Sequence record: OP557970.1
Source of the DNA: Escherichia phage ph0021
Length of the DNA stretch: 64,000 nt
Strand: one strand, 5' to 3'
This document shows positions 79 to 37,370 of the stretch, piece by piece. The notes beneath the pieces were generated by a model. That model saw only the letters and a list, made by a program, of their open reading frames with translations, was not told the origin of the DNA and searched no databases. Position 1 is the stretch's first letter; each line of letters starts with the position of its first letter. Made by a program: the position numbers and the translations under genes.

Positions 79-3000
79 ATGGCCGAGATTAAAAGAAAGT
101 TCAGAGCAGAAGATGGTCTGGACGCAGGTGGCGATAAAATAATCAACGTAGCTTTAGCTGATCGTACCGTAGGAACTGACGGTGTTAACGTTGATTACTT
201 AATTCAAGAAAACACAGTTCAGCAATATGATCCAACTCGTGGATATTTAAAAGATTTTGTAATCATTTATAATAATCGTTTTTGGGCAGCAACGGATAAT
301 ATTCCAAAACCTGCTGGAAATTTTAATAGAATTCGTTGGAAAGCATTACGTACTGATGCTGTATATACAACTGTATCATCTGGACCATATCAATTAAAAT
401 CCGGAGAAGCAATTTCAGTAGATACATCAGTTGGCAATGACATTGAGTTTACTTTACCACCTTCTCCACTTGATGGAGAAACCGTAATAATTCAAGATAT
501 CGGTGGAAAACCTGGCATAAATCAGGTTAAAATAAATTCTTCAAATCAGAGTATTGTCAATTTTAGAGGTGAACAGGTACGTTCAGTTCTAATGACTCAT
601 CCAAAGTCACAGATGATATTCATTTTTAATAATCGTTTGTGGCAAATGTATGTTGCTGATTATAGCAGAGAAGCTGCGATTGTTACTCCATCGACTGCAT
701 ATCAAGCACAATCTAATGATTTTATCGTGCGTAGATTTACTTCCGCTGCGCCGATTAATGTTAAGCTTCCAAGATTTGCTAATCATGGCGATATTATTAA
801 TTTCGTTGATTTAGATAAATTAAATCCACTTTATCATACAATTGTCACGACATATGATGAAACAACTTCAGTACAAGAAGTTGGAACTCATTCTATTGAA
901 GGCCGTGCATCGATTGACGGTTTCTTGATGTTTGATGATAATGAAAAATTATGGAGATTGTTTGACGGGGATAGTAAAGCACGTTTACGCATTATAACAA
1001 CTAATTCTAATATTCGTCCAAATGAAGAAGTTATGGTATTTGGTGCGAATAACGGAACAGCCCAAACAATTGAACTTCAGCTTCCAACCGATATTTCCAT
1101 TGGTGATACTGTTAAAATTTCCATGAATTACATGAGAAAAGGACAAACAGTTAAAATCAAAGCTGCCGGTGAAGATAAAATTGCTTCTTCAGTTCAATTA
1201 CTGCAATTCCCAAAACGCTCAGAATATCCGCCTGAAGCTGAATGGGTGACTGTTCAAGAATTAGTTTTTAACGGTGAAACTAATTATGTTCCGGTTTTAC
1301 AACTTGCTTATATAGAAGATTCTGACGGAAAATACTGGGTTGTACAGCAAAACGTTCCAACAGTTGAAAGAGTCGATTCTTTAAATAATTCTACTAGAGC
1401 AAGATTAGGCGTAATAGCTTTAGCTACACAAGCTCAAGCAAATGCTGATTTAGAAAATTCTCCACAAAAAGAATTAGCAATTACACCAGAAACATTAGCT
1501 AACCGTACTGCTACAGAAACTCGCAGAGGTATTGCAAGAATAGCAACTACTGCTCAAGTAAATCAGAACACCACATTCTCTTTTGCAGATGACCTTATCA
1601 TCACTCCTAAAAAGCTGAATGAAAGAACTGCTACAGAAACTCGTAGAGGTGTCGCTGAAATTGCTACGCAGCAGGAAACTAATACAGGTACTGATGATAC
1701 TACAATCATCACTCCTAAAAAGCTTCAAGCTCGCCAAGGTTCTGAGTCATTATCTGGTATTGTAACCTTTGTATCTACGGCAGGTGCTACTCCAGCTTCT
1801 AGTCGTGAATTAAATGGTACAAATGTTTATAATAAAAACACTAATAACTTAGTTGTTTCACCTAAAGCCTTGGATCAGTATAAAGCTACTCCAACACAGC
1901 AAGGTGCAGTAATTTTAGCAGTTGAAAGTGAAGTAATTGCTGGACAAAGTCAGGAAGGATGGGCAAATGCTGTTGTAACGCCAGAAACGTTACATAAAAA
2001 GACATCAACTGATGGAAGAATTGGTTTAATTGAAATTGCTACGCAAAGTGAAGTTAATACAGGAACTGATTATACTCGTGCAGTCACTCCTAAAACTTTA
2101 AATGACCGTAGAGCAACTGAAAGTTTAAGTGGTATAGCTGAAATTGCTACACAAGTTGAATTCGACGCAGGCGTCGACGATACTCGTATCTCTACACCAT
2201 TAAAAATTAAAACTAGATTTAATAGTACTGATCGTACTTCTGTTGTTGCTCTATCTGGATTAGTTGAATCAGGAACTCTCTGGGACCATTATACCCTTAA
2301 TATTCTTGAAGCAAATGAGACACAGCGTGGCACACTTCGTGTGGCTACACAGGTTGAAGCTGCTGCAGGAACATTGGATAATGTTCTAATAACTCCTAAA
2401 AAGCTTTTAGGTACTAAATCTACTGAAGCGCAGGAAGGCGTTATTAAAGTTGCAACTCGGTCTGAAACTGTAGCTGGAACGTCAGCAAATACTGCTGTAT
2501 CTCCAAAAAATTTAAAATGGATTGTGCAGAGTGAACCTACTTGGGCAGCGACTACTGCGATAAGAGGTTTTGTTAAAACTTCGTCTGGTTCAATTACATT
2601 CGTTGGTAATGATACAGCTGGTTCAACACAGCCATTAGAATCATATGAGAAAAATGGTTATGCAGTATCACCATATGAATTAAATCGCGTATTAGCAAAT
2701 TATTTGCCGTTAAAAGCAAAAGCCGTAGATAGTAATTTACTGGATGGTCTAGATTCGCTCCAGTTCATTCGTAGGGACATTGCACAAACAGTTAATGGTT
2801 CACTAACCTTAACACAACAAACGAATCTGAGTGCCCCTCTTGTATCATCTAGTACTGCTACGTTCGGTGGATCAGTTTCAGCAAATAGTACACTAACTAT
2901 TTCTAATACTGGAACAGCAACTCGTCTGATTTTTGAGAAAGGACCTCAAACTGGAACAAACCCGGCTCAAACGATGACAGTCAGAGTGTGGGGAAATCAA

Positions 3001-3948
3001 TTTAGTGGGGAATCAGACACAACACGTTCTACCGTATTTGAAGTTAGTGATGAAACGTCTAGTCATTTTTATTCTCAGCGCAATAAAGCTGGAAATATAA
3101 CATTTAATATCAACGGTACAGTAACACCGATAAATGTTAATGCTTCAGGAACATTGAATGCAAATGGTGTAGCAACATTTGGTAATTCAGTCACTGCAAC
3201 TGGTGAAATTATTTCTCGAAGCGCAAATGCTTTCCGTGCTATTAACGGAAATTATGGTTTCATTGTTCGCAATGATGGGTCAGTAACGAATTTTATGCTT
3301 ACTGCATCGGGTGATCAGACTGGTGGATTTAATGGATTACGTCCTTTAGCTATTAATAATGCATCTGGTCAAGTAACGATTGGTGAAAGCTTAATCATTT
3401 CCAAAGGTGCTACTATAAGTTCAGGTGGTTTAACTGTTAACTCGAGAATTCGTTCTCAGGGTACTAAAACCTCTGATTTATATACCCGTGCGCCAACATC
3501 TGATACAGTAGGATTCTGGTCAATCGATATTAATGATTCAGCCACTTATAACCAGTTTCCGGGTTATTTTAAAATGGTTGAAAAAACTAATGAAGTTACT
3601 GGACTTCCATACTTAGAACGTGGTGAAGAAGTTAAATCTCCTGGTACATTGACTCAGTTTGGTAACACACTTGATTCACTTTACCAAGATTGGATTACTT
3701 ATCCAACGACTCCAGAAGCACGTACCACTCGCTGGACACGTACATGGCAGAAAACCAAAAACTCTTGGTCAAGTTTTGTTCAGGTATTTGACGGAGGTAA
3801 CCCTCCTCAACCTTCAGATATAGGAGCGATCCCATCTGATAACGGAATAATAGGTAATCTTACTATTCGCGATTTCTTGCGAATTGGTAATGTTCGCATT
3901 ATTCCTGACCCAGTGAATAAAACTGTTAAATTTGAGTGGATTGAATAA
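79..3948 (+). CDS. 34: long tail fiber proximal subunit gp34
   Basis: 1289-aa ORF; N-terminus MAEIKRKFRAEDGLDAGGDKIINVALADR and length match T-even gp34; internal RTATETRRG...ITPKKL repeats. Confidence 0.93.
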   Translation: MAEIKRKFRAEDGLDAGGDKIINVALADRTVGTDGVNVDYLIQENTVQQYDPTRGYLKDFVIIYNNRFWAATDNIPKPAGNFNRIRWKALRTDAVYTTVSSGPYQLKSGEAISVDTSVGNDIEFTLPPSPLDGETVIIQDIGGKPGINQVKINSSNQSIVNFRGEQVRSVLMTHPKSQMIFIFNNRLWQMYVADYSREAAIVTPSTAYQAQSNDFIVRRFTSAAPINVKLPRFANHGDIINFVDLDKLNPLYHTIVTTYDETTSVQEVGTHSIEGRASIDGFLMFDDNEKLWRLFDGDSKARLRIITTNSNIRPNEEVMVFGANNGTAQTIELQLPTDISIGDTVKISMNYMRKGQTVKIKAAGEDKIASSVQLLQFPKRSEYPPEAEWVTVQELVFNGETNYVPVLQLAYIEDSDGKYWVVQQNVPTVERVDSLNNSTRARLGVIALATQAQANADLENSPQKELAITPETLANRTATETRRGIARIATTAQVNQNTTFSFADDLIITPKKLNERTATETRRGVAEIATQQETNTGTDDTTIITPKKLQARQGSESLSGIVTFVSTAGATPASSRELNGTNVYNKNTNNLVVSPKALDQYKATPTQQGAVILAVESEVIAGQSQEGWANAVVTPETLHKKTSTDGRIGLIEIATQSEVNTGTDYTRAVTPKTLNDRRATESLSGIAEIATQVEFDAGVDDTRISTPLKIKTRFNSTDRTSVVALSGLVESGTLWDHYTLNILEANETQRGTLRVATQVEAAAGTLDNVLITPKKLLGTKSTEAQEGVIKVATRSETVAGTSANTAVSPKNLKWIVQSEPTWAATTAIRGFVKTSSGSITFVGNDTAGSTQPLESYEKNGYAVSPYELNRVLANYLPLKAKAVDSNLLDGLDSLQFIRRDIAQTVNGSLTLTQQTNLSAPLVSSSTATFGGSVSANSTLTISNTGTATRLIFEKGPQTGTNPAQTMTVRVWGNQFSGESDTTRSTVFEVSDETSSHFYSQRNKAGNITFNINGTVTPINVNASGTLNANGVATFGNSVTATGEIISRSANAFRAINGNYGFIVRNDGSVTNFMLTASGDQTGGFNGLRPLAINNASGQVTIGESLIISKGATISSGGLTVNSRIRSQGTKTSDLYTRAPTSDTVGFWSIDINDSATYNQFPGYFKMVEKTNEVTGLPYLERGEEVKSPGTLTQFGNTLDSLYQDWITYPTTPEARTTRWTRTWQKTKNSWSSFVQVFDGGNPPQPSDIGAIPSDNGIIGNLTIRDFLRIGNVRIIPDPVNKTVKFEWIE

Positions 3949-3956
3949 GAGGTATT

Positions 3957-5072
3957 ATGGAAAAATTTATGGCAGAGTTTGGACAAGGATACGTCCAAAC
4001 GCCATTTTTATCGGAAAGTAATTCAGTAAGATATAAAATAAGTATAGCGGGTTCTTGCCCGCTTTCTACAGCAGGACCATATGTTAAATTTCAGGATAAT
4101 CCTGTCGGAAATCAAACATTTAGCGCAGGTCTTCATTTAAGAGTTTTTGACCCTTCAACAGGAGCATTAGTTGATAGTAAGTCATATGCTTTTTCTACTT
4201 CAAACAATACAACATCTGCCGCTTTTGTTAGTTTCATGAATTCTTTGTCAAACAATAGACTTGTTGCTATATTAACTAGCGGAAAGGTTAATTTTCCTCC
4301 TGAAGTGGTATCTTGGTTAAGGGGAGCAGGAACTTCAGTTTTTCCATCAGATTCAGTATTGTCAAGATTTGACGTATCATATGCTGCTTTTTATACTTCT
4401 TCTAAAAGAGCTATTGCATTAGAGCATGTTAAACTAAGTAATAGAAAAAGCACAGATGATTATCAAACTATTTTAGATGTTGTATTTGATAGTTTAGAAG
4501 ACGTCGGAGCTACGGGATTTCCTAAAAGAACATATGAAAGTGTCGAGCAATTTATGTCAGCGGTTGGTGGAACTAATAATGAAATTGCGCGTTTGCCAAC
4601 TTCATCCGCGATAAGTAAATTATCTGATTATAATTTAATTCCTGGTGATGTTCTTTATCTTAAAGCACAGTTATATGCTGATGCTGATTTACTCGATCTT
4701 GGAACTACAAACATATCCATTCGTTTTTATGATGCATCAAATGGATATATTTCCTCTACCCAAGCTGAGTTTACTGGGCAAGCTGGGTCTTGGGAATTAA
4801 AGGAAGATTATGTAGTTGTTCCTGAAAATGCAGTCGGATTTACTATATATGCGCAGAGAACTGCTCAAGCTGGTCAAGGCGGAATGAGGAATTTAAGCTT
4901 TTCTGAAGTATCAAGAAATGGCGGCATTTCAAAACCTGCCGAATTTGGCGTCAACGGTATTCGCGTTAATTATGTCTGTGAATCGGCTTCACCTCCAGAT
5001 ATAATGGTACTTCCTACACAAGCCTCTTCTAAAACTGGCAAAGTGTTTGGGCAAGAATTTAGAGAAGTTTAA
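3957..5072 (+). CDS. 35: long tail fiber hinge protein gp35
   Basis: 371 aa, immediately downstream of 34; T4 gp35 is about 372 aa. Confidence 0.88.
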   Translation: MEKFMAEFGQGYVQTPFLSESNSVRYKISIAGSCPLSTAGPYVKFQDNPVGNQTFSAGLHLRVFDPSTGALVDSKSYAFSTSNNTTSAAFVSFMNSLSNNRLVAILTSGKVNFPPEVVSWLRGAGTSVFPSDSVLSRFDVSYAAFYTSSKRAIALEHVKLSNRKSTDDYQTILDVVFDSLEDVGATGFPKRTYESVEQFMSAVGGTNNEIARLPTSSAISKLSDYNLIPGDVLYLKAQLYADADLLDLGTTNISIRFYDASNGYISSTQAEFTGQAGSWELKEDYVVVPENAVGFTIYAQRTAQAGQGGMRNLSFSEVSRNGGISKPAEFGVNGIRVNYVCESASPPDIMVLPTQASSKTGKVFGQEFREV

Positions 5073-5077
5073 ACTGA

Positions 5078-5101
5078 GGGAGCCTTCGGGTTCCCTTTTT
5101 C
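5078..5101 (+). terminator. rho-independent terminator-like hairpin after gene 35
   Basis: GGGAGCC-TTCG-GGTTCCC stem-loop followed by TTTTTCTTT on the plus strand. Confidence 0.6.
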
Positions 5102-5103
5102 TT

Positions 5104-5111
5104 TATAAATA
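5104..5111 (+). promoter_or_regulatory. T4-type late promoter (TATAAATA) upstream of gene 36
   Basis: Exact TATAAATA about 24 nt upstream of the gene 36 ATG. Confidence 0.6.
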
Positions 5112-5134
5112 ATATTAAAATAAAGGGGCATATA

Positions 5135-5785
5135 ATGGCTGATTTAAAAGTAGGTTCAACTGTAGGTGGATCTGTCATTTGGCATCAAGGAAATTTTCCA
5201 TTGAATTCAGCCGGTGACGATGTACTCTACAAATCATTTAAAATATATTCAGAATATAATAAACCACAGGCAGCTGATAACGATTTCGTTTCTAAAGCTA
5301 ATGGTGGTACTTACACCGGTCCAATTACTATTAATTACGGGGTAAATAGTTATCTTCAATTAAGTAATAATGAAACCCCCATTCGAATTCGTTCTGGTGG
5401 CGGTACCGGTAATACTCTTGTAGTTGGCGGCTCTTCCGGTGGTATTAGTTTTAGACCTGCAGGTAGTGAAATCACTACTGGACAAATTACCATTACGCCA
5501 GAAGGTTTGACAACATTTACCAGGGCTGTAACGGCTCCATCGGTAACTGTTACATCTACTCCTTCCGCAGCATCTGATGTTACTCGTAAAGATTATGTTG
5601 ATGGAGCAATAAATACTGTTACAGCAAATGCAAACTCTAGGGTATTACGCTCTGGAGACACTATGACAGGAAATTTAACTGCGCCAAACCTTTTTTCACA
5701 GAATCCTGCATCTCAACCTTCACACGTTCCACGATTTGACCAAATCGTAATGAAGGATTCTGTTCAAGATTTCGGCTATTATTAA
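5135..5785 (+). CDS. 36: long tail fiber distal connector gp36
   Basis: 216 aa; start [21 protein letters not shown]; position between 35 and 37. Confidence 0.88.
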
Positions 5786-5793
5786 GAGGACTT

Positions 5794-8760
5794 ATGGCTA
5801 CTTTAAAACAAATACAATTTAAAAGAAGCAAAACTGCAGGTCAACGTCCTGCTGCTTCAGTATTAGCCGAAGGTGAATTGGCTATAAACTTAAAAGATAA
5901 AACAATTTTCACAAAAGATGACTCAGGTAGTGTTATAGAATTAGGTTTAAAATATGGAGGAACAATTGATGGTTCTTTAACTGTTAATGGAAACATAATT
6001 GGAAATTTAACAGGTAACGCTGCAACTGCAACGAAATTAAAAACAGCACGAAAAATTAATGGTATATCCTTTGATGGGTCAAAAGATATCACGCTAACTC
6101 CATCTGACATAAATGTCAATAGCACAACGTTTATAAAAAATAACGGCGAATTACCTGTTGATGCTAATTTAGATGAGTATGGGCCTGTTGAAGAATATCT
6201 TGGAGTTTGGTCGAAAGCAACTTCAACCAACGCTCAACCAGCAAATAAATTTCCAGAAGAAAATGCTGTAGGTGTTCTAGAAGTATTTGTGGCCGGTCAA
6301 TTTGCTGGTACTCAGAGATATACAACTAGATACGGAAATGTTTATATTCGTTCCTTGACTGCTACATGGAACGGAGTAAATGGTCCGTGGAGTGTGTGGC
6401 GAAATATTCAATCCGGTACTCGTCCACTGTCAACAACAATTGATCTTAATGATCTAGGAGGCGCTGAACACCTTGGTTTGTGGCGAAATAGTTCAAATTC
6501 CATTGCTACCTTTGACAGAAATTTCCCAGAAGAGGGGTCGTCAGCTCAAGGTCTTTTGGAAGTATCTGAAGGTGGAAACTATTCTCGTACACAAAGATAT
6601 ACAACCAGATTTGGAGTTGTTTATACTCGCTGTCTTACTGCTGCATGGGATGCATCTGCGCCTAAATGGGGACCGTGGCAACAAGTCGGTAATGTCACAC
6701 CGGCGACTTTCTATGATGGAGATCTGAATGATTTTAAAACTCCTGGGTTATATAATATTTTAGGCACTGATGCCGTTATTAACTGTCCTACAGGTGAAGG
6801 TTTGCCGACTGTTATTGTTGGTTTGCTGGAAGTTAAACAGCGTGCTTCTGGCGGTGCTATTTTCCAAAAATTTACTACTGCCGGAACAGGTGCAACTACT
6901 CGCGATCGTATTTTTGAGCGTGCATATACTGGTGGTGCGTGGGGTGCATGGAACGAAGTATATACATCTTATTCTCTGCCAATTACTTTGGGTATGGGTG
7001 GTATTAAAGCTCAATTAGCGGAGTTAGATTGGCAAACCTTTGATTTTGTCCCTGGTAGTATGTTTAGTGTTCCTTTGAACAAAATAAAGAATATGCCCGC
7101 AAATATGGATTGGGGCACGATTGATGGAAACCTGGTTATGTTTTCCGTTGGTCCTAGCGAACACACTAGCACAGGACGTACTGTTCAGATTTGGCGTGGT
7201 ACTGTATCCCAGACAAACTACCGTTATTTTGTCGTTCGTGTATTCGGTAATTCAGGAAATAGAACTTGCACAGTTCGTCGTGTTGTTCTTGAAGACGGAT
7301 CACATACTTGGACTGCTAAACAAGATTTTAATGGCGCAGTTAACTTTAACTCTACTGTTAACCTTAATAACACTACCACATTTAAAACAGAAGTTAAATT
7401 TCGCTCATTGAATGCATTCCGTATGTATGGCGGAAAATTTGGTACATTTTTACGTAATGATGGAGAGAGTCTTTATATTCTTTCCACCGACGAAGATGAT
7501 CAAGATGGAAACTTTAATACAAATAGACCTTTCCGTTATGAATTAAGAACTGGTGATGTTACTTTAGGTGGTATTAGTGGTGCTAACGTTTTAAAATTAA
7601 AACGTGATTCTCTCACCGCATTTTTTGGTGGTGATATTAACATGAAAGGCTTGATGACTTTTGACGCCGGACGTTTAGGATCACGAGATTATTTTAAATT
7701 TAACCATTGGGGTGATAGTAATAATGCGCGTGATAACATTATTCAGTTAGAAGACAGCAAAGGCGCTCATTTTTCCACTGAACGTACTTTAGCGACTGGT
7801 GCAATTAAGACTAAATTTTTTGGTGAAATTGAATCCGATGGTAAATTGGTTATTAAACGTCCGGGTGATTCTATTGTATTATCAGCACCTGCTAATAATT
7901 CTTTGCATATTCGCGGTGATATAGACGGGACTGGTAACTGGTATATTGGTAAAGGTGGTACTGATAATGGATTAGCGTTCTATAGTTATGCTACTAATGC
8001 TGGTGTATACATTACAAACGCAGGAGATATCTCGCTAAGTCCAAAGGGTGCCGAAATGGCTCAGGTCAATAACGTTCGATTATATGTTCATGGTGAACGT
8101 TGGACCGCTAGTCAACCAGGTGATTGGGGCAGTCAGTGGCAAGTGGAAGCGCCAATATTCGTCGATCATGGTTATGTTGGATCAGATAGCTATTATCCAA
8201 TTATTAAAGGAAGAAGTGTAGTCACCAATCAAGGGTTTGTAACTGCCGTCGATCTTGGTATTCGTCGTGTCAATAACAATTGGGGACAAGCAATTATTCG
8301 TGTTGGATCTGCGGAGGCATCGCCAGCGGCTGGACACCCTAACGCGGTATTTGAATTTCATTACGACGGTACTTTCTATTCTCCTGGTAATGGTAACTTT
8401 AACGATGTGTATATTCGTTCCGATGGTCGTCTTAAGATTAATAAAAAAGAGCTAGAAAACGGAGCACTTGAAAAAGTATGCCGACTGAAAGTTTATATTT
8501 ACGATAAGGTTAAGTCTATTAAAGACCGTAGTGTTATTAAACGCGAAGTTGGTATTATTGCTCAGGATCTTGAAAAAGAATTACCGGAAGCTGTGTCTAA
8601 AGTTGAAGTTGATGGATCTGATGTTCTGACAATTTCTAACTCCGCTGTGAATGCTCTTTTAATTAAGGCTATCCAAGAAATGAGCGAAGAAATTAAAGAA
8701 TTAAAAACGCCTTTCTTCACTAAAATTGCTCGCAAAATTAGTAAATATTTTAAATTCTAA
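5794..8760 (+). CDS. 37: long tail fiber distal subunit gp37 with C-terminal intramolecular-chaperone-like region
   Basis: 988 aa; start [22 protein letters not shown]; C-terminal region after [22 protein letters not shown] resembles the cleaved C-terminus of T2-type gp37. Confidence 0.9.
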
Positions 8761-33718: not shown

Positions 33719-33962
33719 TTATTCACCAGTTACTTTCCACAAATCTTCATTTGCAGCAATCCATTCAGTACGTTGATTTTCTTCATATACTGTAGAATAT
33801 GCTGCTTTTTCTGAAGGGAACGTCTGGTAATGAGCACCAGAAATTTTGTGAACATCAGAATAAAGAGGGAAAGCTACAGAAATTTCTTTACCCTGAATTG
33901 TTACCACCATCAACTGCTTGGTCAAATGTTTTAATATTAACATAACCGCGAGTACTAGCCAT
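33719..33962 (-). CDS. soc: small outer capsid protein Soc, reading frame apparently interrupted
   Basis: ATG at 33962 gives MASTRGYVNIKTFDQAVDGGNNSG then a stop; a second frame from about 33900 gives ...GKEISVAFPLYSDVHKISGAHYQTFPSEKAAYSTVYEENQRTEWIAANEDLWKVTG, which matches the Soc C-terminus. Confidence 0.6.
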
Positions 33963-34188: not shown

Positions 34189-34379
34189 TTTGAATGCTCT
34201 ATAATTAATTTTAAAGCTTCTTCACTGACAAAAATTTCGTCAGGACCTTCTATAACTTCAACCGTACGAAGTTGATTAGTTAAGAGCTCACATACGAGCT
34301 CCTTGTTATAATCTTTAAATAGTTGGTCAATACGTTTCTTATGGGCTTTCTTAAGCTGACGCTTATTTAAACGAGCCAT
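34185..34379 (-). CDS. hypothetical protein (soc-56 interval)
   Basis: 64-aa basic ORF with overlaps at both ends. Confidence 0.5.
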   Translation of the reverse strand: MARLNKRQLKKAHKKRIDQLFKDYNKELVCELLTNQLRTVEVIEGPDEIFVSEEALKLIIEHSK

Positions 34380-34897
34380 TAATAACCTCGGTCTTGACGG
34401 GCGAAATTTTCGGCATTTTTCAGATAATAAAGTTTAAAGATTTCTTCTGCTGTAAGACCAAGACCCTGGAACATATTCAGAACGAAATGAAGAATATCAA
34501 TCATTTCAAATTTAATTTCTAACTGGTCTTGTGGAGACAAATCAGTAATCAGAGTTTCACGACGTTCACCATGCTGCGACTTCCAAGGTTTCCATACAGC
34601 AGATGCGTCTTTTTCACCATTACTCATACCACCAAGAGAAGTCAGAAGTTCACGGAATTCATCATCAATATAATCTTTCTGATTGCGTAGCCAATCAACA
34701 ACTTCACCGGCAGTAGCCAAGTCATCAGGATGACGATTATATTCAGGTTTATCTTTAGCTAAACGAACCTGTAAAGATTTCTGCATGTCAAGCATTACCT
34801 GTAGCGGGTCTTTTTCATCACCGAGAATATCCCAATACTCATTTTGAGCTTTATCAGCGCCTTCGATCAGTTGACTACATTCGTTGAAATGTGGCAT
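34379..34897 (-). CDS. 56: dCTP pyrophosphatase gp56
   Basis: 172 aa; MPHFNECSQLIEGADKAQNEYWDILGDEKDPLQVMLDMQ... matches T4 gp56 (171 aa). Confidence 0.9.
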   Translation of the reverse strand: MPHFNECSQLIEGADKAQNEYWDILGDEKDPLQVMLDMQKSLQVRLAKDKPEYNRHPDDLATAGEVVDWLRNQKDYIDDEFRELLTSLGGMSNGEKDASAVWKPWKSQHGERRETLITDLSPQDQLEIKFEMIDILHFVLNMFQGLGLTAEEIFKLYYLKNAENFARQDRGY

Positions 34898-34898
34898 G

Positions 34899-35549
34899 TT
34901 ATTTTTCCTTTCTTATGAAGTTTTCTATCATATGTCTATAGCAGATATTAGGATAACCTGCCTTGACAGCTATTTTATTAAATTTTGTGCGCTTAGGTCT
35001 ATTATTATAAACCCATAATTCATAAAGCGCATCATAACTATTCCATATTTCTCCTCGCCTAGGATTTGGTAAACCATATCGAGGTGAATTTTTACCGCTA
35101 AATCTTCCTTTTCGGGCTTTACTCATATTAGCCTTGGCTTCATCGGATATAATTTTACCTTTATGAGCTAGACGCATTTTGGCTTTAGTTTCTTCTGGGG
35201 TCTTTTTGCCTTTAATCCATGACGGCTTGCCATATCTAGGATTATTTTCACCCGAGAAAAGAACAGAGTTTTGGATTTTAAGGGTTTCTATTAATCTACT
35301 TGTTAATTTAACACCTTTATTATATCGCATTAAATTTACAGCATAATGCAATCCTCTCACATCTGGATATATTTTAGTTAATAATCTATGAGCTATAAAA
35401 TGCTCACGCGCAGTTAACTCAACAAGATTGTTTTTGTCATCTGCTCCTCCTATACATCTAGGAATTATATGATGACGTTCTTTATATCCGCCAAGATGCC
35501 GGCATTTAGCTTTTGTAATTAAAGCCGAGTAAATTTTTTGGTAATTCAC
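34899..35549 (-). CDS. HNH-family homing endonuclease with NUMOD-like DNA-binding repeats
   Basis: HNH core ERHHIIPRCIGGADDKNNLVELTAREHFIAH; repeated NNPRYGKPS / KNSPRYGLPN motifs with GK..SEE.K.K.S.A.KG spacing; freestanding between 56 and 61. Confidence 0.75.
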   Translation of the reverse strand: MNYQKIYSALITKAKCRHLGGYKERHHIIPRCIGGADDKNNLVELTAREHFIAHRLLTKIYPDVRGLHYAVNLMRYNKGVKLTSRLIETLKIQNSVLFSGENNPRYGKPSWIKGKKTPEETKAKMRLAHKGKIISDEAKANMSKARKGRFSGKNSPRYGLPNPRRGEIWNSYDALYELWVYNNRPKRTKFNKIAVKAGYPNICYRHMIENFIRKEK

Positions 35550-35589
35550 ATATATCCTTTCAATTCATGGGTTAGTAGATTAATTATAC

Positions 35590-35597
35590 AATAAATA
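35590..35597 (+). promoter_or_regulatory. late-promoter-like element (AATAAATA) upstream of the plus-strand ORF
   Basis: One mismatch to TATAAATA, about 22 nt upstream of the ATG at 35620. Confidence 0.3.
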
Positions 35598-35619
35598 TAT
35601 AAAGCAATAAGGAGGACAT

Positions 35620-35820
35620 ATGGTACAAAAATTAATGGCACTTGTTGATGCCATAAAAGGTAATAAAAAACGTATAGCTTTTACTATTTCTGCTATGGTA
35701 GGAATTTTACTCTGGAACTTTATTTTATCACCCATTGCAATTGCACATGGTATTAATATTCCAGTAGTTACTCTTGATACATTCGTAGATTTAGCATTTG
35801 CTTTAGTTGGGTTAATTTAA
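35620..35820 (+). CDS. small membrane protein, the only plus-strand gene inside the early region
   Basis: 66 aa; strong RBS AAGGAGGA 7 nt before the ATG; TM segment ISAMVGILLWNFILSPIAIAHG; stop overlaps the gene 61 stop from the opposite strand. Confidence 0.45.
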   Translation: MVQKLMALVDAIKGNKKRIAFTISAMVGILLWNFILSPIAIAHGINIPVVTLDTFVDLAFALVGLI

Positions 35821-36845
35821 ATCTTAGCATATTTAGATAACCGCATTTTAGCCATCAACCCCTGTGCAATATTATTTTTCATATATTCCATAATTTGTTC
35901 AGGGGTTGCACCTTCCTTTCTAATCATATCATTAACATCTTTTGATTTCCAGGGAGATTTATCCCAAAACATAACTCTTTCTCCTGCATCAACTAATTTA
36001 GTCATTCGCTTGATAGTGTCAGGATGACGAGGTTCATTATCTAAAACCCACACTCGTCTATCTTTAAATGGAACAACTTCTAGGTCTAATTGACCACCCG
36101 TAATAGCTATACCATTTTCAATAAAAAGCGAATCTATAGGTCCTTCTAGAACATATACATCACCATCTTTAACTCGTTCGACTCCATATATTTTTGTTGC
36201 CTCAGGATAAGCTTTAATGGTGATATATTTTTGAGGAGCATCTTTCTTTAATGCACGTCCTTGAAAAGACTCAGCTTTTCCATTAGCATTATAAATTGGA
36301 ATAACAAGACGAGGCTCAGGTATTTCCTTTTTATATGTTCCCGGTGCTATGCTATTAACTAATTTAGGCCATTCGGTTGTAAACCAAAGATATTTCCATT
36401 TATCCTTTGGAATACAACGAGCTTTTACATATTTTATAATTGGATGGTCTTCCGCCAGTTTATCTAATCTAACACATGACGGAAGAGATTTAATTATTTT
36501 CTTCTCAGGTTGTTTAGGAAGTTCTTTAGGTTTTTCTACTGGACGACTTTTACCTTTTTCTTTTCTTATTTCAAAGATATACTCACGATATAAATCAGGT
36601 TCAAACTCCTTTAAATATATTCCGATTGGTGCATGATAGTTACAGTTATAACAATGAATATTTCCTTCATTATTATCGCCATAATACCATCCACGGGCTT
36701 TATTTTGGTCGGTTTTTGAATCTCCACAAACAGGGCATCTAAACCGCAATTTAAAAGTTGAACTATTATTTACTTGTGTGAATTTAGGTAAATGAGCTAA
36801 TGCACGGTATGCAAACTCATTATCAATCCAAGGTATTGATGACAT
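35817..36845 (-). CDS. 61: DNA primase gp61
   Basis: 342 aa, same as T4 gp61; zinc ribbon CPVCGDSK...CYNC. Confidence 0.95.
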   Translation of the reverse strand: MSSIPWIDNEFAYRALAHLPKFTQVNNSSTFKLRFRCPVCGDSKTDQNKARGWYYGDNNEGNIHCYNCNYHAPIGIYLKEFEPDLYREYIFEIRKEKGKSRPVEKPKELPKQPEKKIIKSLPSCVRLDKLAEDHPIIKYVKARCIPKDKWKYLWFTTEWPKLVNSIAPGTYKKEIPEPRLVIPIYNANGKAESFQGRALKKDAPQKYITIKAYPEATKIYGVERVKDGDVYVLEGPIDSLFIENGIAITGGQLDLEVVPFKDRRVWVLDNEPRHPDTIKRMTKLVDAGERVMFWDKSPWKSKDVNDMIRKEGATPEQIMEYMKNNIAQGLMAKMRLSKYAKI

Positions 36846-36847
36846 TT

Positions 36848-37012
36848 TTACTCTTCTTTTTCTTTAGATTCCTCTTTTTTCTTTTTAGGAATCTGTTCAG
36901 GACCTTTATTTACTACAGCGCCTGACGTTGTTCCAGTAGAGATATTTTCAGGATTACCACCTGAATCTCCAGCTACCATATCTTCTTTAATAAATTCTTT
37001 ATATGTTTTCAT
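36848..37012 (-). CDS. small hypothetical protein (61.1 position)
   Basis: 54-aa Lys/Glu-rich ORF; below the ORF-track cutoff. Confidence 0.4.
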   Translation of the reverse strand: MKTYKEFIKEDMVAGDSGGNPENISTGTTSGAVVNKGPEQIPKKKKEESKEKEE

Positions 37013-37013
37013 A

Positions 37014-37370
37014 TTAACCTCTATTCATAAAAGCATTAAAAATTTGGTCATCAATAGATGGTGCAGTAATATTTTCTGCATCATTTAGCAAATCATTAAT
37101 TTCATCAGATAGCATAACACATGTACCTTTATTTCCTGTAATTGTTACTGCGCAATTACGAACGTTTTCTTTATTAAATTTTAGGTTAATATTTTCGTAG
37201 TGAAAATCCTTTAATGCTGAATATATTTTTAAAATAAAATTGTCTTTTACTACAATAAACCCAACCTCACTATTAAAACGTGGTTCATGGAAACTGTAAT
37301 AAACCTTTTCATCTATAAAATCGTATGAAATTTTTTCCATTTTTAAATATGAAAATTCAGAACTATACAT
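37014..37370 (-). CDS. hypothetical protein (61.2 position)
   Basis: 118-aa ORF. Confidence 0.5.
   Translation of the reverse strand: MYSSEFSYLKMEKISYDFIDEKVYYSFHEPRFNSEVGFIVVKDNFILKIYSALKDFHYENINLKFNKENVRNCAVTITGNKGTCVMLSDEINDLLNDAENITAPSIDDQIFNAFMNRG

Follow-up and report, generated by a model that had tools for sequence, protein, structure and literature searches.

The DNA considered here (the window) is a stretch of 64,000 nucleotides (nt) from Escherichia phage ph0021 (OP557970.1). Between the primase gene 61 and the dCTPase gene 56 it carries a 216-amino acid open reading frame (ORF) that very probably belongs to the Mob (HNH) family of phage T4, whose members are free-standing homing endonuclease genes (HEGs). 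It separates the start codon of gene 56 from the original ribosome-binding site. The order of genes on the minus strand is 41, dmd, 61.4, sp, a 118-amino acid ORF, 61.1, primase gene 61, the HNH gene and gene 56 (Table 1). Genes 56 and 61 are both intact, and the HNH gene lies on the same strand as gene 56, between its leader and its ATG and outside any intron or intein, a position in keeping with the Mob family. The features of sequence and context by which a Mob gene is recognised are all present, including a distinct C-terminal region presumed to bind DNA.

An earlier note on this DNA had described the ORF as an HNH core followed by NUMOD3-like repeats, an architecture typical of free-standing phage homing endonucleases, and had placed it in the gap between genes 56 and 61, where T4 carries dam. 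This description stands on each count. The note had also called it the only substantial ORF of the gap: the HNH gene is indeed the largest ORF there, but it shares the gap with a second real gene, a conserved hydrophobic ORF of 66 amino acids on the plus strand.

Pseudomonas phage PsgM02F (OR584013.1) matches the window at 100% identity and, despite its name, is a Tequatrovirus, the locus being 96–98% identical to those of T-even phages of E. coli, Shigella and Yersinia (PMC10815195). PsgM02F was isolated on P. coronafaciens pv. garcae and its plating efficiency on E. coli is reported as just 0.11% (PMC10815195).

Table 1. Features of the gene 61–gene 56 region, with positions counted along the window
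Feature	Position	Strand	Remarks
Mob-family HNH homing endonuclease gene (probable), free-standing	34899..35549	-	216 amino acids; GTG start; TAA stop 1 nt before gene 56 ATG
HNH (beta-beta-alpha-metal) catalytic core, predicted	35370..35501	-	Residues ~17-60; Pfam HNH, invariant columns, profile matches, AlphaFold (AF2) model
Two NUMOD3 repeats	35070..35252	-	Residues ~100-160 (GENNPRYGKP...ETKAKM / GKNSPRYGLP); presumed DNA-contacting linker
C-terminal three-helix domain	34902..35057	-	Residues 165-216 (W..YD.LY.LW..NRPKR..F....GYP..Y); presumed helix-turn-helix DNA-binding module
Shine-Dalgarno sequence GAAAGGA of HNH gene	35557..35563	-	Original gene 56 ribosome-binding site; left copy of 7-nt junction repeat
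Second GAAAGGA	34906..34912	-	In last HNH codons (..RKEK*); ribosome-binding site for gene 56
Putative MotA-dependent middle promoter	35583..35609	-	MotA box tatTGCTTtA 35609->35600, 11-nt spacer, TATAAT 35588->35583
Candidate co-converted tract	34864..34898	-	Spacer C and first 34 nt of gene 56 (ATGCCACATTTCAACGAATGTAGTCAACTGATCG); Jiaodavirus-type inside Tequatrovirus gene 56
Gene 56 (dCTPase/dUTPase)	34379..34897	-	Downstream host gene, likely target; PHROG 173, E 8.8e-47; Pfam dUTPase_2
Primase gene 61	35817..36845	-	Confirmed neighbour of HNH gene
Conserved 66-amino acid hydrophobic ORF	35620..35820	+	phrog_2024, E 3.9e-31

The HNH protein and its relatives

Comparison with the T4 Mob proteins (sequences taken from NC_000866) is decisive for the identity of the protein. 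In BLASTP searches, residues 1–81 are 63% identical to MobE (E 7e-33), whilst MobD aligns at 35% identity over residues 1–211, the C-terminal module included (E 7e-35), and MobB and MobC match at 46% (E 1e-20) and 35% (E 1e-17), respectively. By this measure the N-terminal HNH domain is homologous to the Mob proteins and the predicted catalytic His/Asn/His residues are retained. The match to the PHROG family 655, annotated 'homing endonuclease', is strong (E 1.3e-59), and the GTG start is confirmed by the N-terminus MNYQKIY, which aligns with residue 1 of both MobE and MobD.

The HNH motif, ERHHIIPRCIGG...N...LTAREHFIAH, is found at residues 24–54. The protein has 2,709 relatives in the databases and, across an alignment of 115 homologues, E24, H26, P30, G35, N41, E49, H50 and H54 are invariant. 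A confident AlphaFold model of the protein (predicted local distance difference test score, pLDDT, 89.6) places strands at residues 24–27 and 42–45 followed by a helix at 47–60, coinciding with the motif. What counts against an HNH assignment is the Pfam profile itself: HNH (PF01844) reaches only 18.8 bits, below the cut-off of 21.4 (E 0.0019), and covers residues 23–43 only. Membership of the HNH superfamily therefore rests on the homology to Mob proteins together with the weak but sensible matches of a family profile, built from the 115-homologue alignment, to the HNH motif of McrA (E 0.0027) and to that of a group II intron maturase (E 0.0074).

The remainder of the protein appears to be given over to DNA binding. 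Pfam NUMOD3 scores above its cut-off (29.3 against 20.4 bits) in two stretches, over which the family profile also matches the DNA-binding domain of I-TevI (1i3j; E 0.015). In the AlphaFold model the NUMOD3 region is helical and the C-terminus forms a three-helix bundle. This C-terminal module recurs in the GIY-YIG enzyme SegA (32% identity, E 1e-6) and so would be a DNA-binding module shared by both nuclease families. A search of the PDB with the single sequence gave no usable match, NCBIfam yielded nothing beyond a 13.8-bit match to the IscB HNH domain, and I-HmuI gave no significant match of sequence or fold in the comparisons made here.

Every allele examined is intact, and the ratio of non-synonymous to synonymous substitution rates (dN/dS) lies between 0.06 and 0.19 in all pairs of alleles, the signature of a protein under purifying selection. 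Such values fit any functional protein, mobile or otherwise, and so suit also a Mob-like nuclease that homed in once, no longer spreads and has been kept for some other benefit, such as hampering related phages in the same cell or taking part in DNA metabolism. Alternatively, the gene might persist solely for providing the essential gene 56 with its present ribosome-binding site and promoter spacing. We consider such domestication improbable, for reasons that lie in the distribution and the transfer of the gene.

Insertion, distribution and the absence of dam

Alignment of the window with slur02, IME537, 235Ecol030PP and T4 reveals a clean indel of ~652 base pairs (bp), which is exact relative to the empty sites of slur02 and the Jiaodavirus KpV477. 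The empty site reads ...ATGAATTGAAAGGAAAAATA-ATG, the ATG being that of gene 56, and the occupied site reads ...ATGAATTGAAAGGA-TATAT-GTG...(HNH)...AGAAAGGAAAAATAA-C-ATG, ending at the same start codon. The cassette has taken over the native ribosome-binding site of gene 56, and its own last codons (RKEK-stop) supply a second copy, hence the presence of GAAAGGA at both junctions. The context that follows the second copy, GAAAGGAAAAATAAC-ATG, is identical to the native gene 56 leader of Jiaodavirus.

The interval from 34899 to 35820 also contains the native promoter region of gene 56. A putative middle promoter, predicted as MotA-dependent solely from the published MotA-box consensus, lies 34 nt upstream of the HNH GTG, and in slur02, T4 and KpV477, whose sites are empty, an identical element immediately precedes gene 56. 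The HNH cassette therefore appears promoter-less and would ride on the gene 56 transcript, just as most free-standing endonucleases of T4 are expressed without a promoter of their own on the transcript of a host gene (PMC2988022). A sigma-70 promoter scan performed at chance level (8 sites against 8.1 expected) and did not flag the middle promoter. At the start of the HNH gene, RNA folding gave no hairpin of the mobE/segF type that might sequester the ribosome-binding site (z = 0.19, no better than shuffled sequences), and a terminator scan found no convincing terminator on the coding strand within the 5' end of the gene. Further upstream, between gene 61 and the putative middle promoter, is a terminator-like hairpin (35635–35654, minus strand; ATGGCA-loop-TGCCAT plus a T run). 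It is antisense to the first part of the 66-amino acid ORF and might insulate the HNH gene and gene 56 from gene 61 read-through.

The HNH gene is sporadic, not universal. Locus-matching sequences are found in 791 phage records, 31 of which cover at least 80% of 34300–36900, and the HNH ORF is present in 58 records; precise empty sites occur in near-identical phages such as slur02, whose gp56 is 98% identical to that of the window (T4 gp56, 73%). The earlier note's expectation of a mobile-element insertion site is borne out by these empty sites and by the near-identical cassettes, set in divergent flanks, of three phage genera described below. That so few records are occupied (58 of the 791) and so many sites are empty yet intact is what one expects of an element still cycling, and it speaks against a stranded, domesticated gene. 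It is true that the cassette is woven into the expression of gene 56, so that its imprecise deletion would be harmful, and that a competitive benefit of a phage homing endonuclease is on record (PMC11620839); homing and interference competition are, however, compatible with each other.

The earlier note had also seen no Dam-like ORF in the window, and our searches agree. With T4 Dam as query, tblastn finds no match at E ≤ 1 in either the window or the reconstructed 165,282-bp genome, and the methyltransferase motif [DNS]PP[YFW] occurs in no plausible methyltransferase ORF, its sole occurrence in an ORF of at least 150 amino acids being a DPPF six residues from the end of a 309-amino acid ORF. 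The reconstructed genome likewise contains no match at E ≤ 0.01 to the methyltransferase-like ORF of KpV477. Since T4 has dam where the window has the HNH gene, and this genome has no Dam, one might suppose that insertion of the HNH gene caused the loss of dam. We reject this idea, which has next to no chance of being correct. All four combinations of the two genes exist: T4 has dam and lacks the HNH gene, IME537 and ELT1 have both, slur02 has neither and the window has the HNH gene alone. The boundaries differ too, those of the dam indel lying upstream of the gene 56 promoter and the HNH insertion downstream of it. The HNH insertion did not, therefore, displace dam; each gene is an indel of its own in a gap that varies between phages.

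Variable genes gather quite generally in the DNA upstream of gene 56, which is a hot spot for them: the HEG-less KpV477 (extract L061 1–2482) carries different cargo there, several small ORFs, one of which, of 154 amino acids, is annotated as a DNA methyltransferase. With dam, a 186-amino acid ORF and, in KpV477, several ORFs all taking turns in the gap between genes 56 and 61, and with the 7-nt repeat GAAAGGA on both sides of the insert, the HNH gene could be seen as ordinary cargo of a hyperplastic gap, gained by illegitimate or homologous recombination without any endonuclease-driven homing. This we think very unlikely indeed. Homing has been demonstrated in the family to which the protein belongs (MobE; PMC2790892); unlike other cargo, the cassette sits in all three genera at points no more than a few nucleotides apart; and a short donor-type tract accompanies it, as the repair of a break predicts.

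Elsewhere in the reconstructed genome (OR584013.1) there is one other Mob-like gene, between nrdA and nrdB and 63% identical to T4 MobE, and, between the genes for the helicase loader and the single-stranded DNA-binding protein, one further gene annotated as a homing endonuclease; these two genes lie outside the window, at 149795–150526 and 143832–144464. Queries with T4 MobB, MobC, MobD, SegA and SegF found no further loci in that genome. Judged by these searches, the phage is far poorer than T4 in homing endonuclease elements. The sole coding sequence annotated as thymidylate synthase in OR584013.1 (146659–146973) is 315 nt long, far shorter than T4 td, and no dihydrofolate reductase is annotated beside it, which may reflect either a deletion or an annotation gap.

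Of the neighbouring genes, the 66-amino acid ORF is convergent with gene 61, overlaps its stop codon by 4 nt and has a strong AAGGAGG ribosome-binding site. It is kept in phages with and without the HEG alike and is a neighbour of the mobile element, outside it. In T4 the same ORF is intact (94% amino acid identity) yet unannotated in NC_000866.4. The 118-amino acid ORF (37014–37370, minus strand) stands in place of T4 gene 61.2 (208 amino acids), to whose C-terminal part it bears a weak resemblance (31% identity). Both are present in slur02, and the swap is a further indel polymorphism within the gene 41–61 interval. On the other side of gene 56, soc (33719–33962, minus strand) is frameshifted: the frame opened by the ATG at 33962 closes after 22 codons, a separate 74-amino acid ORF (33719..33943) encodes what remains of Soc, and a divergent patch is a net 2 nt shorter than in T4 and slur02. 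A non-essential gene may really have been disrupted here, or the sequence may be in error.

Transfer between genera

The same cassette occupies the same site in Tequatrovirus, in Klebsiella phage Mexia (Jiaodavirus) and in Dhakavirus VR5, the insertion points differing by no more than a few nucleotides. The distance between the HNH gene and the gene 56 ATG is 1 nt in Mexia, which at this locus is closely related to KpV477, and 4 nt in VR5, where the HNH gene is annotated "mobE". A sliding identity profile of the window against Mexia shows 45–75% identity in the flanks, 93–100% at 35250–35500 (the HNH domain), 76–82% in the central NUMOD3 block and 95–99% at 34850–34950 (the 3' end and the start of gene 56). 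It is VR5 that matches the central block, at 98–99% nucleotide identity. Having Mexia-like ends and a VR5-like centre, the window gene is therefore a recombinant of alleles that circulate in different genera. Blocks of 95–100% identity shared across genera whose flanks are only 45–75% identical imply recent transfer and not the long residence that a domesticated nuclease would have had.

The block shared with Mexia extends from the GAAAGGA upstream of the GTG to 34 nt into gene 56. KpV477, which lacks the HEG, has GAAAGGAAAAATAAC-ATGCCACATTTCAACGAATGTAGTCAACTGATCG as its native gene 56 leader and first codons, and insertion of the cassette there changes nothing else. The typical Tequatrovirus sequence at this point is AAAATA-ATGGCATATTTTAATGAATGTTCACAACTGATTG, but alleles that carry the HEG (HEG-plus) have the Jiaodavirus version, as would be expected of a short co-conversion with a Jiaodavirus-like donor. 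This tract is present in 120 phage records, 58 of them from Klebsiella or Raoultella phages. One HEG-less allele with the tract (L009) has exactly the sequence that would result if an IME537-like allele suffered a deletion between its two GAAAGGA repeats. Many empty-site alleles already have the donor-type tract and may be resistant to the enzyme, a point in favour of a nuclease that has ceased to spread. With this set against the evidence from transfer and occupancy, we continue to favour a Mob gene that is still mobile.

Mexia has homing endonuclease genes on both sides of its gene 56 (extract L056 1802–3651), the Mob-type gene upstream and a second, annotated one that occupies the position of T4 segF and overlaps the 3' end of gene 56. 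Mexia gene 56 is itself a mosaic, identical to that of KpV477 over nt 1–74 and highly divergent from ~nt 150. An apparent partial duplication of gene 56 beside the HNH gene, seen in IMG/VR contig 2974741249 (L038/L049), was discarded as evidence since the contig also has internal duplications of the primase gene and looks chimeric. The region concerned (1873–5937) holds two partial copies of gene 56, probably through chimeric assembly of two co-occurring phages, and three endonuclease-like ORFs around genes 61 and 56, all of which end in W..Y..L..LW..NKPK..F...GYP..Y.

Target site, mechanism and comparison with known elements

Where might the enzyme cut? HEG-plus and HEG-less (HEG-minus) alleles of Jiaodavirus are identical over nt 1–74 of gene 56, and this identity, taken with the shortness of the tract, suggests a target at or spanning the insertion point. 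We therefore entertain, tentatively and as something rather less than an even bet, a recognition site that spans the insertion point, covering the ribosome-binding site and first codons of gene 56, as in intron-encoded enzymes and unlike the distant sites typical of free-standing ones. The 74-nt identity, the 34-nt tract and the empty alleles that resemble precise excision between the GAAAGGA repeats all favour such a site.

Several observations weigh against this picture of a cassette homing into gene 56 and carrying its tract with it. Roughly half of the tract-bearing non-Klebsiella records, by subtraction, are without the HNH gene. A comparison of three HEG-plus with seven HEG-minus Tequatrovirus alleles revealed no immunity substitutions in the 1.3 kb of flank comprising gene 61 and the 66-amino acid ORF; the few substitutions at the very start of gene 56 are also found in the HEG-less L009, and none separates all HEG-plus from all HEG-minus alleles. 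There is thus no immunity signature by which to locate the target. Free-standing endonucleases, moreover, can cut hundreds to thousands of bp from their own gene (PMC2988022).

By homology with MobE, MobA and I-HmuI, a mechanism can be proposed. In a mixed infection, the protein would bind the DNA of an HEG-less phage through its NUMOD3 and helix-turn-helix region, and its HNH centre would then nick or cut close to the 5' end of gene 56 or to its translation-initiation region. With the HEG-plus genome as template, recombinational repair would copy the HNH gene and a short flank into the recipient, and nearby markers of the recipient would be lost, giving the local marker exclusion that the earlier note had expected and that MobE and SegF would lead one to predict. 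The 34-nt tract is indirect evidence for such cleavage, and the sharing of the cassette between genera agrees with inheritance above Mendelian ratios. Expression probably comes from the upstream MotA-type middle promoter and the GTG start would keep the level of the protein low. To our knowledge, data on activity within the Mob family are confined to MobE and MobA. MobE introduces its nick into the 5' region of nrdB (that of T2), the gene that follows mobE, and co-conversion accompanies the inheritance of mobE (PMC2790892), whilst MobA is also a nicking enzyme and gene 56 is already known as a target, that of SegF (PMC2988022, Table 1).

Among known elements, MobE offers the closest parallel. 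Beyond the similarity of the catalytic domains, each is a promoter-less cassette directly upstream of, and in the same orientation as, an essential gene of nucleotide metabolism, each is sporadic in T-even phages, and in each the 5' end of the downstream gene is, or would be, co-converted. The two differ in locus, T4 mobE lying between nrdA and nrdB and the window gene between 61 and 56, and in length: the window protein has NUMOD3 repeats and a MobD/SegA-type C-terminal module that the 141-amino acid T4 MobE lacks. Nor does the window gene have a detected internal terminator or a hairpin over its ribosome-binding site, and it starts with GTG, whereas the mobE start overlaps the stop codon of the upstream gene. 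MobD, encoded in T4 between nrdC.11 and mobD.1 (PMC2988022, Table 1), has the same full-length architecture, C-terminal domain included, but differs in its locus and in its longer central region (the alignment of 247 columns has 37 gap columns), and the catalytic domain of the window protein is closer to that of MobE.

SegF is the counterpart on the other side of gene 56. Its gene lies between gene 56 and soc in T4, and the enzyme cleaves gene 56 of T2 (PMC2988022, Table 1), so that both elements have gene 56 as neighbour and as target, probable in the present case. Both would be instances of intronless homing at the gene 56 locus, and it is these two kinds of element that flank gene 56 of Mexia. 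SegF, however, has a GIY-YIG and not an HNH fold, and its gene shows no sequence similarity to the window gene (tblastn E 0.91). I-HmuI of SPO1 and I-TevIII of RB3 also join an HNH motif to an extended DNA-binding region, but unlike the window gene these are intron-encoded; I-HmuI, like MobE and MobA, is a nicking enzyme (PMC2988022).

GenBank records annotate the gene variously as "homing endonuclease", "mobE" and, in one record, "putative mobile endonuclease D". We found no paper that describes it, the report on PsgM02F (PMC10815195) is silent about it, and a review from 2010 lists no Mob gene at the 61/56 site (PMC2988022). None of our findings overturns current understanding. If the assignment is correct, 61/56 would be a sixth Mob-type insertion site, beyond the five in T4, and two unrelated selfish nucleases would attack gene 56 on its two flanks, SegF from downstream and a Mob-type enzyme from upstream. 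There is a lesson for annotation as well, the absence of dam here being an independent polymorphism and no consequence of the insertion. The insertion puts the middle promoter ~650 bp from oriA as annotated in T4 (nt 23 of gene 56) and might alter use of this origin.

Should the recognition site indeed span the insertion point, the element would have crossed from Jiaodavirus, whose hosts are Klebsiella, to the Tequatrovirus phages of E. coli, Yersinia and Shigella, and the alleles would constitute a natural record of a full cycle of invasion, transfer between genera and precise loss. The cassette, common to phage genera with different hosts, with boundaries defined to the nucleotide, a 34-nt donor-type tract and candidate excision footprints, is a clean natural example of a probable homing element shared between genera, and the alleles compared here could serve directly as substrates on which to map the target of a Mob enzyme.

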